The notes: generated from the letters alone by a model not told the origin. DNA of 64,000 nucleotides from an uncultured Muribaculaceae bacterium (GCA_964458035.1 CAYWFZ010000004.1:361-64360), one strand, 5' to 3'; numbered from the stretch's first letter, positions 47,085-51,269 are shown. Translations and numbers: made by a program.

Positions 47085-50000
47085 TTATTTTTGCGAAATA
47101 CTTCCATTACCCATTATATAATTTCTTATTTTTACATAATCAGTTGCAAAAACTTCACCATCAGAATCAACATCTGCTGCTAATAAAGACTCTTTGTCTA
47201 ATGTACTTTTTCCCATTATATAATTTCTTATTTTTACATAATCAGTTGGAAAAATTTCACCATCTTTATCAACATCCCCTTTTATTATAATTGTATAGTT
47301 ATAAACGACATTATCAACTAATGCTTCATATTTTATTCCCGTAGCAACAATGCCCGAATTAATATTAATATTATTTTTATTAAAATATTTTAGTTTACTA
47401 CCATTATATGAATCTATCTGTGTCCTTATAGTTGAAACATCAGTATGAAGAGAAAAGCCATAAACATACTCTCCCTTTTTTATTAATCCAAGATTTTTCA
47501 AAAGTTCTTGTTCTGTAATATTTTTAATTTGCTTTTTTGTTACTACTTTTACACTGGCAACACAACCATTAATAGATCTAGCAGTAATAATAACTTCCCC
47601 TTCTTTTATAGCCTTAACAACTCCATTATTAACAGTTGCAACACTGATGTTAGAAGATGACCAAGTTATTCTTTTGTCCATTGTAGTATTCGTAGGAAGT
47701 ACACTTGCACTTAAAGAAATTGTATCTCCTTCAAAAAGTTCAATATTACTCTTATCTATAACTACTTTTTCAATTGAGATAACCGGATCAATAACGACAA
47801 CAGAAATAGTTTCAGTTATACCGTTTAGAGAAGAGACAGCTACACTAGTTCTACCAGCTTTTTTACCAACAATTACAGCATTTTGAACACTTGCGATTTC
47901 TTGATTCTCGACTTTCCAAGAAAGAGTCTTATCCATTGTTGTATTAGCAGGAAGTACTTTTGCATCTACATCAACTTTCTCACCTACTTTAAGTTGAATT
48001 TCTTTTTTACCCACTTCAATAGATTTTATACTTATCATTTCCGATAAGCCAACTTCAAGATTATCTTTACTTAATAAATCAAAATTATGAAGAAAATATG
48101 TTCCACCTACTGCAGTATTTTTCCTTTGCTCATCATTTTTATATTCATAGTAAACTTTACATGGAATATTATAAGTTCCTTCATTGATATATTGATTTCC
48201 AATAATCATACCAACATTTTTTTCTCCAAAAACTGCACCATTAAATGTTGAATCAGTTATAGAAGCATTTTGATTTAGTCCAATCAATCCTCCTACCCCA
48301 GTTTCAGATGAAACACTTACCGAAACCTCACAATTAGAGATTGAAACTGTACTAGTTGCTGTTCCAACTAACCCTCCAGTCTCTTGTTCAAATATTCCCT
48401 TAATATTGTTCACTTGGCCACCGTTTATCTTAACATTCTTAATAATAGACTCCTCTGCTACATTTGCAAATCCACCTAAGTATAAACCATTTTTTGTAGG
48501 CGAAACATTTATTGAATCAATTATTAGATTTTCAACAACTGTAGTTTTATTCATTTCACCAAGGAAATTAAATACACCACATCCACTTGAAGTAATATTT
48601 CTTAAATGTTTACCATTACCATCGAAATTACCAACAAAATTTATTGACGGATAATCTGTAACTCCCGAAAAATCCAAATCATTCATAAGTTTAAAATAAT
48701 AACTGCCTTTAGCATACGAAGAACCCATATAATATAAATAATCATCAACATTATTTATTAAATAAGGATTAGTTTTTGTTCCATCACCAACTACATTTGG
48801 AAACTCAACATCAAAAGTTACTGAAGAATCAGTTTCTCCTGTAACATTAATTATGATACCTGAATTACTTCCATCCGAGTAATGAATCGTTTCATTATCA
48901 AAAGTATTATCATTGCTAATGCTTTTACCAAAAACATTTCTTCCCATATGAAGTGTTGCTTGAGTTAAATCTCCCTTGCATTCGCCTAACTTAGTTTCAT
49001 TAGGTCTAAAAATATATATCAATTTAGAAGTGTCACTTTCATCACTTTTTATACGATAAACAATAATACCTGATTTATCAACAGTATAATTTTCATAGGT
49101 ATCTCTTTTACTAATATATTCAACTACAAAGAATTCATCCTTACTTCCACCCTTGATTATAACTGCTCTTTTTTCGTCTTTATCTAAGTATTCCGGTTTA
49201 GTTAAAGTTACACCTTTAGTCGTTGAACTAACGGTTTCTAATTTATTATGCCAGTTATTATAATTTCTATAATCACTTATAAAATAAGTTAAAAATCCTG
49301 GAGGATTTGATGAAGGATAATTTCCCATTAAATCATAAAAGCCAACTGGAGCAGTTTGATAAGCGTACTCTGTATATAAATCACTAAAACCTAAAGTATG
49401 TGCAAATTCATGCATTAATGTTCCATACCCACCTTGATTAAGTGAAAAAAGACCCGCAATATCTGTATAATCTTTAGCTGTTATTAAATTATAACTTGAA
49501 ACACTTTTATCAAATATCTGGGTATCAACATTAGTTGCAGTCGCCTTATGTGACCACAATAAATCACCGTAGCCAATGCCACCACTATCAGGTATTTCTA
49601 CAATAAAAGATATTGCATCAATATACCCATTATTATCACTATCCAATATTTCTTTATTAGAGTATATACGTTCTAAATCATCCTTAATTTCCATTAATGC
49701 ATTATTAATAAGCTCATTTTCTCTACTTGTTCTCTCTTCATAATTAGAGTATCCCAACGGATTTGTTGATGTCTTTTCCAAATAATACGCATAAGGATGA
49801 TTATCCCTATATGAAGTTACCTTATCATTAACTTTAGGAAATATATCTGTATCTATTAGTAATTCACCATATGATTGTTCTTTATAAAAACGTTTAAAAG
49901 AAGGAACTAAAGTAACTCCATCCCTTGTTTTCATTTCAAATAATTCATCACTATTATAAACAGTATATGCATTTCTTACACTTTCTTCATCATCTAAGTG

Positions 50001-50186
50001 TCTGTCAACTATGTCATCACTATCATTAAATTCAATAAATACTGCAATGTTTTTTATGCTTCTAACACTTTGAGATAGTTTACCACTATTACTATTAAAT
50101 CTGTATTCATAATTATTATAAGGAGAGCTACCTGATATTAGTAATGAAAATAATAAAACTAAAAATAATCTTAAAGCCTTCTTCAT
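47085..50186 (-). CDS. Secreted multidomain M6 (InhA-like) metalloprotease with GLUG-type region, two Big_2 Ig-like domains and a C-terminal dockerin
   Basis: 1033 aa with a signal peptide. Zinc site LMHEFAHTLGFSDLY; GLUG-like GGLVG and VGGLIG; two Big_2-like repeats (LPANTTMDKTLSWK..., LPTNTTMDKRITWSS...). The C-terminal duplicated EF-hand-like segments are DVDKDGEIFPTDYVKIRNYIMG and DVDSDGEVFATDYVKIRNYIMG. Confidence 0.85.
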   Translation of the reverse strand: MKKALRLFLVLLFSLLISGSSPYNNYEYRFNSNSGKLSQSVRSIKNIAVFIEFNDSDDIVDRHLDDEESVRNAYTVYNSDELFEMKTRDGVTLVPSFKRFYKEQSYGELLIDTDIFPKVNDKVTSYRDNHPYAYYLEKTSTNPLGYSNYEERTSRENELINNALMEIKDDLERIYSNKEILDSDNNGYIDAISFIVEIPDSGGIGYGDLLWSHKATATNVDTQIFDKSVSSYNLITAKDYTDIAGLFSLNQGGYGTLMHEFAHTLGFSDLYTEYAYQTAPVGFYDLMGNYPSSNPPGFLTYFISDYRNYNNWHNKLETVSSTTKGVTLTKPEYLDKDEKRAVIIKGGSKDEFFVVEYISKRDTYENYTVDKSGIIVYRIKSDESDTSKLIYIFRPNETKLGECKGDLTQATLHMGRNVFGKSISNDNTFDNETIHYSDGSNSGIIINVTGETDSSVTFDVEFPNVVGDGTKTNPYLINNVDDYLYYMGSSYAKGSYYFKLMNDLDFSGVTDYPSINFVGNFDGNGKHLRNITSSGCGVFNFLGEMNKTTVVENLIIDSINVSPTKNGLYLGGFANVAEESIIKNVKINGGQVNNIKGIFEQETGGLVGTATSTVSISNCEVSVSVSSETGVGGLIGLNQNASITDSTFNGAVFGEKNVGMIIGNQYINEGTYNIPCKVYYEYKNDEQRKNTAVGGTYFLHNFDLLSKDNLEVGLSEMISIKSIEVGKKEIQLKVGEKVDVDAKVLPANTTMDKTLSWKVENQEIASVQNAVIVGKKAGRTSVAVSSLNGITETISVVVIDPVISIEKVVIDKSNIELFEGDTISLSASVLPTNTTMDKRITWSSSNISVATVNNGVVKAIKEGEVIITARSINGCVASVKVVTKKQIKNITEQELLKNLGLIKKGEYVYGFSLHTDVSTIRTQIDSYNGSKLKYFNKNNININSGIVATGIKYEALVDNVVYNYTIIIKGDVDKDGEIFPTDYVKIRNYIMGKSTLDKESLLAADVDSDGEVFATDYVKIRNYIMGNGSISQK

Positions 50187-50189
50187 AAA

Positions 50190-51269
50190 TTACTTCCTCC
50201 AAAGTTTAAAGTAAACAAATATTAGTAAGCCAACTATAAAGAGTACTAAACCAACAATTACTACATATAAACTAGTCTTATCTTTTATTTCTTCACAATT
50301 TTCATTAGAACAAGTAAATAGGCTACTTGAAAACAACTGCATCGATTCTTCAGTAGTTTCATACACATAATAAACAAATTCACCCTTATTATTTAACACT
50401 CTTATTTTGTAATAACGATCCTCTAATTTCTCGCCCATCATAGTTTTATTTCCAACAGTAATAGCAGTTGCATTATCTATATCATTATCAATAAAATATT
50501 GCCTATTATTAATACTAAGTAAATTAACCTTATTTATAAACTTAGAAAGATTAGAATCGTATAAATAATAAATATCATCATCTGATCTTAACAAGTAATT
50601 ATCTTTAATTTTTAAGGCAGGATAATTAGTATTACCTATCTTTATATTAGTAATTGAAAATCCTTCTTGTTCTAAAGAAGAATCTAATTCTGTCTCTGAT
50701 AAATTAATTTCTTTATCGTTATAAGTAAACACGTCTTTTTTATCTACTGCTAAAGTTGTTGAGTTAGCTTTAATAGTTGTATTCTTCTGAGTATTTATTG
50801 TTGTACTTTTTTCAGCTGCTTTTGTCGATGTAGTGGGTCTCTTATTAGTCGTTACCTTTGCTGTTGATTTAGTTGTCGGTACTTTAGTAGTAGTTTTTGT
50901 AGTTGGTTCAGTTATTTCTTTCTTTTTTATTTCAACACTCAAATTCTTAGCTCCAGGAGAATAAAGATTACCATCACTATCGCTAAATCCTCTTTGTGGT
51001 GTAACTGTGATAGTAACTACTCCTGTATTTCCAGCACTACATGATATTGTCTTAGCTTTTTCTTCATACCATATAGAAGTGCTAGAACAATTTCCATTAT
51101 TAACTTTTATATCAACTCTTCCAACTGAATTTCCACTTAGTACAATATTAAATGTCCCATTTGGTTCTATTTGCTTACTTGATAAAGAGGCATTAAAAGA
51201 ACCAGCTGCATAAACATTAGAAGTAAGACATAACAACACTACAATTAAAACACTCATAAATTTTCTCAT
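50190..51269 (-). CDS. Secreted protein with Thr-rich linker and C-terminal transmembrane anchor (possible dockerin-binding anchor)
   Basis: 359 aa. Signal peptide (...SNVYA/AG), a ~95-aa beta-type N-domain, a T/K-rich linker, a ~170-aa domain, and a C-terminal TM LYVVIVGLVLFIVGLLIFVYF + KLWRK. The RBS for the downstream protease gene lies in its last codons. Confidence 0.7.
   Translation of the reverse strand: MRKFMSVLIVVLLCLTSNVYAAGSFNASLSSKQIEPNGTFNIVLSGNSVGRVDIKVNNGNCSSTSIWYEEKAKTISCSAGNTGVVTITVTPQRGFSDSDGNLYSPGAKNLSVEIKKKEITEPTTKTTTKVPTTKSTAKVTTNKRPTTSTKAAEKSTTINTQKNTTIKANSTTLAVDKKDVFTYNDKEINLSETELDSSLEQEGFSITNIKIGNTNYPALKIKDNYLLRSDDDIYYLYDSNLSKFINKVNLLSINNRQYFIDNDIDNATAITVGNKTMMGEKLEDRYYKIRVLNNKGEFVYYVYETTEESMQLFSSSLFTCSNENCEEIKDKTSLYVVIVGLVLFIVGLLIFVYFKLWRK

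Follow-up and report, generated by a model that had tools for sequence, protein, structure and literature searches.

Cellulosome anchoring scaffoldins are cohesin-bearing surface proteins that capture proteins with a dockerin, among them SdbA, OlpB and Orf2p of C. thermocellum, which have SLH repeats, and ScaE of R. flavefaciens, which has a sortase signal. To our knowledge, dockerins work only through cohesins, and we know of no report of an M6 peptidase that carries a dockerin. Here we describe two adjacent genes in a 64,000 nt stretch of DNA from an uncultured Muribaculaceae bacterium (GCA_964458035.1 CAYWFZ010000004.1:361-64360; this whole stretch is called the window, and positions count along it). 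The first gene encodes a membrane protein of 359 amino acids (aa), hereafter the anchor, and the second a 1033-aa M6-like protease ending in a dockerin. From comparison of related loci, we lean toward the view that the pair is a surface-tethering module, in which the dockerin would dock on the N-terminal immunoglobulin (Ig)-like domain of the anchor (the N-domain) and the protease would be held on the producing cell. The broader proposal, that this ~95-aa domain represents a new and widespread class of non-cohesin dockerin receptors tethering proteases and peptidoglycan hydrolases to the cytoplasmic membrane, has in our judgment about an even chance of being right.

As in the anchoring scaffoldins, a surface-fixed receptor would capture a secreted protein via a C-terminal type-I-like dockerin, and the dockerin of the window is homologous to dockerins solved with cohesins (see below). 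Unlike them, the candidate receptor is a ~95-aa Big_2-like Ig domain on a protein with a C-terminal transmembrane helix, not a cohesin with SLH repeats or a sortase signal; each operon has a single receptor and a single enzyme; and the cargo is a protease or peptidoglycan hydrolase instead of a glycoside hydrolase. ClcC/ClcD of Cellulosilyticum lentocellum is a minimal cohesin-dockerin pair from adjacent genes that forms a cellulose-acting heterodimer (PMC13487519). It likewise combines a single receptor with a single dockerin protein, with no multi-cohesin scaffold, but ClcC has an annotated bona fide cohesin, whereas our locus has no cohesin, a membrane anchor and an M6 protease as cargo. 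An analysis of the Hungate1000 genomes describes a category (ii) of Clostridiales, with dockerins in genomes that hold few or no cohesins and with partners unknown (PMC6118326). The window resembles these non-cellulosomal cases in having a dockerin on a non-cellulolytic enzyme and no visible cohesin, either here or in the related loci, and differs in offering a specific syntenic candidate partner family. A literature search, with subscription-journal papers mostly outside its coverage, found no description of the anchor/dockerin pairing, of the partner family or of a dockerin-bearing M6 protease. Dockerin-mediated surface tethering via a non-cohesin Ig-like receptor is probably both widespread and undescribed.

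The two open reading frames (ORFs) are as given in the preliminary description of this DNA, on the minus strand like almost all genes of the window, which has a G+C content of ~28% (Table 1). Their junction is also as it had stated, with the ribosome-binding site of the protease gene inside the final codons of the anchor gene and the genes 3 nt apart (...TGG AGG AAG TAA TTT ATG; anchor stop at 50192-50190, TTT spacer at 50189-50187, protease ATG at 50186). Its further claim of a duplicated dockerin holds as well, and that of an InhA/M6-like protease is consistent with the sequence. The C-terminus of the protease has two 22-residue F-hand repeats, DVDKDGEIFPTDYVKIRNYIMG (residues 971-992) and DVDSDGEVFATDYVKIRNYIMG (residues 1005-1026). 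Pfam Dockerin_1 (PF00404) matches residues 969-1024 over positions 1-56 of its 57-position profile (E 2.3e-10; 40.9 bits against a cut-off of 22.9), and the final 91 residues match the solved dockerin 8x39_A (E 4.5e-16) as well as 4uyq_B (1.9e-8), 3ul4_B (2.9e-7), 2ccl_B (3e-5) and 1ohz_B (7e-5), which were solved with cohesins, some by crystallization of the complex. The loops DVDKDGEIFPTD and DVDSDGEVFATD have Asp at positions 1, 3, 5 and 12, and the sole departure from the classic form is a Phe at loop position 9, where Asn or Asp is usual. Judged by these matches, the domain is a genuine type-I dockerin.

The catalytic part shares with InhA and peptidase family M6 the HExxHxxGxxD zinc motif (HEFAHTLGFSDLY, residues 259-271) and a match to TIGR03296 (NCBIfam, M6 domain) along nearly its full length (residues 49-377, profile positions 2-285 of 286, E 2.6e-25). 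It differs in scoring below the curated cut-off (89.9 vs. 110.8 bits) and in a long C-terminal extension with GLUG, Big_2 and dockerin modules. Pfam Peptidase_M6 does not match the window protease, yet is recorded for most of its homologues. On its sequence, we would call the protein a divergent M6-like peptidase. Its family comprises ~75 clusters with the M6, GLUG and dockerin architecture, at 40-48% identity.

The whole 359-aa anchor matched no Pfam (at E ≤ 0.1) or NCBIfam family. AlphaFold2 lays it out as a signal helix (residues 2-19), a beta domain (25-114), a disordered linker (119-177), a second beta domain, the C-domain (181-312), and a transmembrane helix. The signal peptide, N-terminal beta domain, Thr-rich linker and transmembrane anchor proposed earlier are thus all present in the model, and the second domain has ~135 aa, not ~170. 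The anchor is a predicted type-I membrane protein with a cleaved signal peptide, a 5-residue cytoplasmic tail and the N-domain distal to the membrane. The N-domain (~95 aa) has an invariant GFSDxDxNxYxPG loop and 22 invariant alignment columns, and is the only element common to all membrane partners of dockerin proteins that were examined. In most relatives, the position of the linker is occupied by a Cadherin-like domain. An exhaustive profile search found at least 618 clusters (at 50% identity) of the anchor family with E ≤ 1e-3, 232 of them with E ≤ 1e-10, in metagenome-assembled genomes (MAGs) labelled uncultured Bacilli, Tenericutes, Erysipelotrichaceae or Clostridia, many from mouse gut.

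The preliminary description had taken one of the two anchor domains to be a divergent cohesin, with a Foldseek comparison as one way to check. Neither homology nor fold supports this identity, and we reject it on the evidence of Pfam, PDB profile search, HHalign and Foldseek. For the whole anchor model, Foldseek returned nothing from the PDB at E ≤ 1e-3, and the best 50 matches contain no cohesin, being generic Ig-like sandwiches (PapD, the alpha-2-macroglobulin MG domain, intimin and Fn3-like domains). The best 50 matches of the separate C-domain model also contain no cohesin; the best has an E of 0.038 and TM-scores are below 0.3, with hits resembling WD40 blades. The modeled C-domain may be an undescribed all-beta fold. 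A profile built from 34 N-domains gave nothing below E 0.18 against PDB sequences and no cohesin at E ≤ 10, and cohesin is absent from the 25 most frequent of the 102 Pfam families that these 34 domains matched at E ≤ 1. HHalign assigned both the N-domain and C-domain profiles a probability of ≤0.3% against a type-I cohesin profile, a shallow one built from three PDB cohesin sequences. The N-domain is also too small for a cohesin, a nine-stranded jelly-roll beta sandwich of ~140-150 aa. Its match to Big_2 (PF02368) in the window protein is weak alone (E 0.22); when the 34 family members were scanned singly, 15 matched Big_2 (best E 1.6e-7) and others fn3_5, Big_3_5 or BatD, and by these profile matches the family is related to the E-set/Big_2 group.

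The earlier remark that no recognizable cohesin occurs elsewhere in the window was borne out. Pfam Cohesin (PF00963) matched none of the 27 window ORFs scanned, which include all with export signals, and a hidden Markov model (HMM) made from the same shallow type-I alignment found nothing in the 92 window ORFs of at least 70 aa or in ~0.87 Mb of related loci. Two proteins with a scaffoldin-like look (P0229 and P0258, with 14 repeats) were set aside as SprB-type repeat proteins of Bacteroidota-like sequence, their match being judged a generic Ig resemblance. No natural fusion of N-domain and dockerin was found, the profile homology search with the N-domain giving 13 short fragments only.

What does stand of the two-component display idea is the pairing of the anchor with the dockerin protease, which is supported by synteny, by loss and by distant N-domain loci. 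One genome per GTDB species was scanned with the narrower of two anchor alignments (A3; the broad A2 was too divergent), and the loci were scored with home-made HMMs for five modules. The scan yielded 60 loci, one in each of 60 MAGs, whose labels are uncultured Bacilli, Tenericutes, Erysipelotrichaceae, Clostridium or similar and many of which come from mouse gut. An M6 protease gene lies directly downstream of the anchor in all 59 loci that extend past the anchor gene, the remaining contig ending within it. The downstream gene is an intact M6-GLUG-dockerin gene in 48 loci, is split by frameshifts in four, and in one more (L041) has its dockerin present but frameshifted; five contigs end within the protease gene before the dockerin. 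In the last locus (L021, 7265-8623) the protease is truncated at 452 aa, and no GLUG or dockerin sequence was found downstream. An N-domain membrane-protein gene therefore adjoins a dockerin gene in 53 of 54 evaluable GTDB loci, as well as in the window. In relatives, the anchor and protease genes usually overlap, by 17 nt in 26 of 45 pairs. Split protease genes, with frameshifts or stops, were seen in several MAGs (L012, L025, L027, L032, L065, L066 and L041); split and truncated genes could be assembly errors or real decay of modules in some lineages.

Mere genome-wide synteny was considered as the cause of this pairing and rejected. A close relative (L001) would alone be compatible with it, but flanking genes differ in L004, L006 and others, so the pairing is not simple genome-wide synteny. 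L004 and L006, divergent loci with unrelated flanks, were reached from the protease side, and the gene upstream of the protease is again a clear anchor homologue with a 17-nt overlap.

Three protease relatives retain the M6 and GLUG parts without a dockerin: P0084 has CW_binding_2 repeats, P0078 has SLH, and P0075 has neither. An anchor gene is missing upstream of all three. P0078 and P0084 are like the window protease in their M6 and GLUG core (36-45% identity over 72-74% of the query) and presumably in the need to stay on the cell surface; they are unlike it in that their own C-terminal modules, which occupy the place of the dockerin in these two of the three relatives, attach directly to wall polymers, and there is no partner gene. 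In a neighbor-joining tree P0075 and P0078 nest within the dockerin clade, which implies two independent events. The tree implies that loss of the dockerin, or its replacement by a wall-binding module, coincided with absence of the anchor at least twice.

Distant membrane proteins that share only the N-domain extend the association beyond proteases. In eight of eight such loci, the gene adjoins that of a non-protease dockerin protein, with gaps of 8-118 nt, and the dockerin partners carry SH3_3, glucosaminidase-like or MBG-like domains, or none recognized. The anchor P0007 follows a gene for three SH3_3 domains and a dockerin (L074), and the anchor P0006 follows a 672-aa dockerin protein with no other significant Pfam domain (L075/76). 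In L077, L078, L079 and L080 the N-domain protein follows dockerin proteins that are of SH3_3 and/or weakly glucosaminidase-like type; in L082 it follows an ORF cut by the contig end, the last 77 residues of which are a dockerin; and in L081 it comes after an SH3 protein with a single F-hand at its end. The L081 N-domain protein is the most divergent examined, and its partner (282-2009) ends ...GDADGDGGITASDYVLVKNYLM followed by the stop, a naturally truncated dockerin. A metagenome scan with the distant N-domain subfamily gave three loci, all three beside a dockerin gene. Gene order can also be reversed relative to the window, as in L072/73, where a distant gene with M6, ChW and dockerin modules precedes the anchor gene. 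The C-domain was seen only in anchors paired with M6 proteases and is missing from the anchors P0006 and P0007 and from those of L030 and L041. P0006 and the anchors of L030 and L041 consist only of signal peptide, N-domain, linker and transmembrane helix, and since those of L030 and L041 accompany M6 proteases, the N-domain is, as far as these architectures tell, sufficient for pairing and the universal element, and the C-domain specific to M6 partners. The decisive point is that the dockerin is the common denominator among the enzymes paired with N-domain anchors.

These occurrences bear on a different reading, in which a classical cohesin, or some other receptor, encoded elsewhere in the genome is the binding partner of the dockerin, and the membrane protein makes no contact with the dockerin, being an accessory expressed alongside the protease (an adhesin or a substrate-targeting subunit, for example). 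The only partners documented for dockerins are cohesins, our cohesin checks within this genome covered 64 kb (27 ORFs by Pfam, plus the shallow type-I HMM), and anchors often bear Cadherin-like or SH3 domains, for which other ligands are conceivable. However, an unseen second gene would have to occur in step with the pair across more than 60 species, and neither the absence of the anchor gene exactly where the dockerin is absent nor the presence of the N-domain beside dockerins of unrelated enzymes would be explained. We regard this reading as quite unlikely.

Among 45 non-identical anchor/protease pairs, the highest mean pairwise identities are those of the dockerin (73%) and the N-domain (67%), followed by the M6 catalytic domain (57%), the GLUG region (53%) and the C-domain (39%). 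The distance matrix of the dockerin correlates with those of the anchor domains at r 0.76, vs. 0.70 with the other domains of its own protein, and the divergence of the C-domain tracks that of the catalytic and GLUG parts (r 0.82). Dockerins with IYATDY or IFPTDY pair with SDxDxNxYxPG N-domain loops, in the M6 pairs as well as in the unrelated L075 pair; those with LDASDY, IKASDY or ITSMDY pair with other N-domain loops.

Gene pairs of a protease with its inhibitor or its chaperone are common in bacteria, and the anchor could likewise regulate the enzyme through its catalytic part, as an inhibitor, self-protection factor, chaperone or activator, the dockerin linkage being incidental. The restriction of the C-domain to M6 partners and its co-divergence with the catalytic and GLUG parts would fit, as would weak matches of a few N-domain family members to A2M_BRD and to chagasin-type inhibitor Ig domains. 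Such a role is nonetheless unlikely for the anchor as a whole: the N-domain is common to the partners of at least three unrelated enzyme types that share only the dockerin, and proteases with the same catalytic and GLUG parts but no dockerin have no partner. For the C-domain alone, a regulatory role may hold, and it is compatible with docking through the N-domain.

The close relative L001 (10001-14179, compared with window 47085-51269) shows where the pair is diverging. Most of its neighboring proteins share 89-99% identity with their window counterparts, and the six flanking genes that were measured have a synonymous divergence (dS) of 0.2-0.44. The M6 catalytic domain is on a par with these flanks (92% identity, dS 0.35), whereas the anchor is only 55% identical (dS 0.8-1.5) and is the fastest-evolving gene of the neighborhood. 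The GLUG region (65%), the module preceding the dockerin (63%) and the dockerin (81%) have dS of 0.7-1.0. Nonsynonymous divergence (dN) and dS are both raised in the anchor and in the non-catalytic parts of the protease, a mosaic that suggests either recombination with a more distant allele or faster local evolution, in the anchor and in the non-catalytic and docking parts of the protease.

Fast anchor evolution in this relative, 55% identity against 89-99% for most flanks, would be expected of any exposed surface protein, and adjacency of the two genes is all that is directly observed. The pair might then be coupled in another way, with the anchor a substrate that the protease processes, or both proteins clients of one sorting or secretion route, and the dockerin a Ca2+-dependent folding or stability module. 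A substrate relationship is not expected to be common to a protease and to peptidoglycan hydrolases, though, and across species no modules are better conserved than the N-domain and the dockerin, as would suit a conserved interface. Coupling of this kind seems to us improbable.

According to the docking model that we prefer, the M6 zinc metalloprotease would be secreted, co-translated with its anchor and carrying the type-I dockerin at its C-terminus. The dockerin would bind the N-domain, probably in a Ca2+-dependent manner as dockerins do, at the tip of a membrane-rooted stalk made of the linker or Cadherin-like domain and then the C-domain. Docking would keep the protease on the cell that made it, with the N-domain doing the job of a cohesin without being one, and the overlap of the two genes would favor matched production of both proteins. 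Because the C-domain occurs only with M6 proteases, its role is probably protease-specific, perhaps to contact or regulate the GLUG or catalytic part. The same logic of N-domain and dockerin would elsewhere tether cell-wall enzymes of SH3 and glucosaminidase type, as their gene context suggests.

Several points weigh against this model. Binding between N-domain and dockerin is inferred from gene context. Cohesins are the only class of dockerin receptor known, and neither domain of the anchor resembles them. The cohesin scans, with their shallow type-I profile, covered the window and ~0.87 Mb of related loci, and a classical cohesin may be encoded elsewhere. The distant loci were chosen by N-domain similarity and number eight, several of them from one SH3/glucosaminidase subfamily, and the L081 partner has only a single F-hand. 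Conservation and subtype covariation are confounded by shared ancestry and are hints only.

If the model is true, it would explain the role of 'orphan' dockerins in genomes that have dockerins but no cohesins, for which this locus offers a concrete and easily testable partner candidate, a small Ig-like domain on a membrane stalk. Confirmed binding would give cohesin-dockerin biology a second class of receptor, show how gut bacteria seen only in metagenomes retain both a protease and cell-wall hydrolases at their own surface, and provide a new, compact protein-protein pair that could serve in surface display and synthetic scaffolds. An InhA-like protease displayed on a gut commensal is also a candidate for degrading host or competitor proteins.

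Table 1. Positions of the anchor and protease genes, their predicted domains and their boundary elements in the window.
Feature	Position	Strand	Basis or content
Anchor gene, 359 aa	50190..51269	(-)	ORF call, AlphaFold2 model; signal peptide, N-domain, Thr-rich linker, C-domain, C-terminal transmembrane helix
N-domain, Big_2-like Ig sandwich, residues 22-118, candidate dockerin receptor	50916..51206	(-)	predicted local distance difference test (pLDDT) 80-92; family alignment
Thr/Lys-rich disordered linker, residues 119-177	50739..50915	(-)	pLDDT 27-42; 21 Thr in 59 residues
C-domain, all-beta, residues 178-318	50316..50738	(-)	separate AlphaFold2 model, pLDDT 92.9, predicted TM-score (pTM) 0.85
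C-terminal transmembrane helix, residues 334-354, then KLWRK cytoplasmic tail	50208..50270	(-)	sequence; helix 331-358 in model
Shine-Dalgarno GGAGGAAG of protease gene	50193..50200	(-)	sequence; inside final codons of anchor gene
Protease gene, 1033 aa	47085..50186	(-)	signal peptide, M6 catalytic domain, GLUG region, two Big_2, pre-dockerin module, dockerin
M6 (InhA-like) catalytic region, residues 49-460; zinc motif at 49374-49412	48807..50042	(-)	TIGR03296; family HMM E 2e-200
GLUG-motif middle region, residues 461-681	48144..48806	(-)	Pfam Glug E 5.4e-4 (at threshold); family HMM E 1e-82
Two Big_2 Ig-like domains, about residues 746-885	47532..47951	(-)	Pfam Big_2 E 1.5e-11, two stretches; HL_N-beta E 7e-9
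Type-I dockerin, residues 957-1033; F-hand repeats at 47211-47276 and 47109-47174	47088..47318	(-)	Pfam Dockerin_1; matches to solved dockerins
Promoter-like site TTTACT-17-TATACT with extended -10 TG, 5' of anchor gene	51294..51322	(-)	consensus scan
Terminator-like hairpin and U-run, 3' of htrA-like gene, 5' boundary of unit	51324..51351	(-)	sequence, RNA fold
Terminator-like hairpin and U-run overlapping protease stop codon, 3' boundary of unit	47054..47086	(-)	sequence, RNA fold

With a promoter-like site of its own and two terminator-like hairpins, the pair looks like a self-contained bicistronic unit. The promoter-like site has 9 of 12 consensus matches and is a pattern match only. The upstream hairpin has a folding energy of -8.5 kcal/mol (z -3.2) and the downstream one -11.3 kcal/mol (z -4.0), and none of 200 shuffles was equally stable in either case. 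Both are AT-rich and nearly identical to each other (AAGAATTAGTTTTACTAATTCTTTTTTT and AAGAATTGGTTTTAAACTAATTCTTTTTTT, respectively), and no third copy was found in the window at ≤3 mismatches. The two hairpins may be ordinary terminators or the edges of an exchangeable cassette.

Sequence identical to 47085-51269 occurs in four sequencing runs of one study, and related sequence (13-26% of sampled words shared) mainly in rat gut metagenomes. Among GTDB genomes, the nearest is a MAG of the mouse gut catalogue labelled uncultured Bacilli; its anchor is only 58% identical, so the species of the window is not among the GTDB representatives.

Just downstream of the pair, two ORFs of 191 and 247 aa (45696-47011, minus strand), the second with a TTG start, overlap by 4 nt and match no Pfam family. 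They correspond to one 444-aa gene in L001 (96% and 91% identity), so the gene has been split here by a frameshift or a sequencing error. A second fast-evolving gene of the region encodes a 542-aa protein (42101-43729, minus strand) with an Asn/Ser-rich N-terminus and no Pfam match, which is 45% identical to its L001 counterpart where its neighbors are 93-99% identical. Predicted surface proteins cluster at 21125-25865 and 38679-40019 (minus strand); two have DUF285 (BspA-like leucine-rich) repeats (E 2e-146 and 1e-79), one of 343 aa has no family match, and one of 446 aa matches the ALK/LTK glycine-rich domain (E 6e-39). The products of 22239-23270, 23316-25865 and 38679-40019 have a similar N-terminal hydrophobic segment (...GFAAVSTTLVINGLV / ...GFAAANTVLDITGSL). 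Finally, an Abi_2 (abortive-infection-type) gene lies among housekeeping genes at 52523-53452 (minus strand), just upstream of the htrA-like gene, and is 96% identical in L001.

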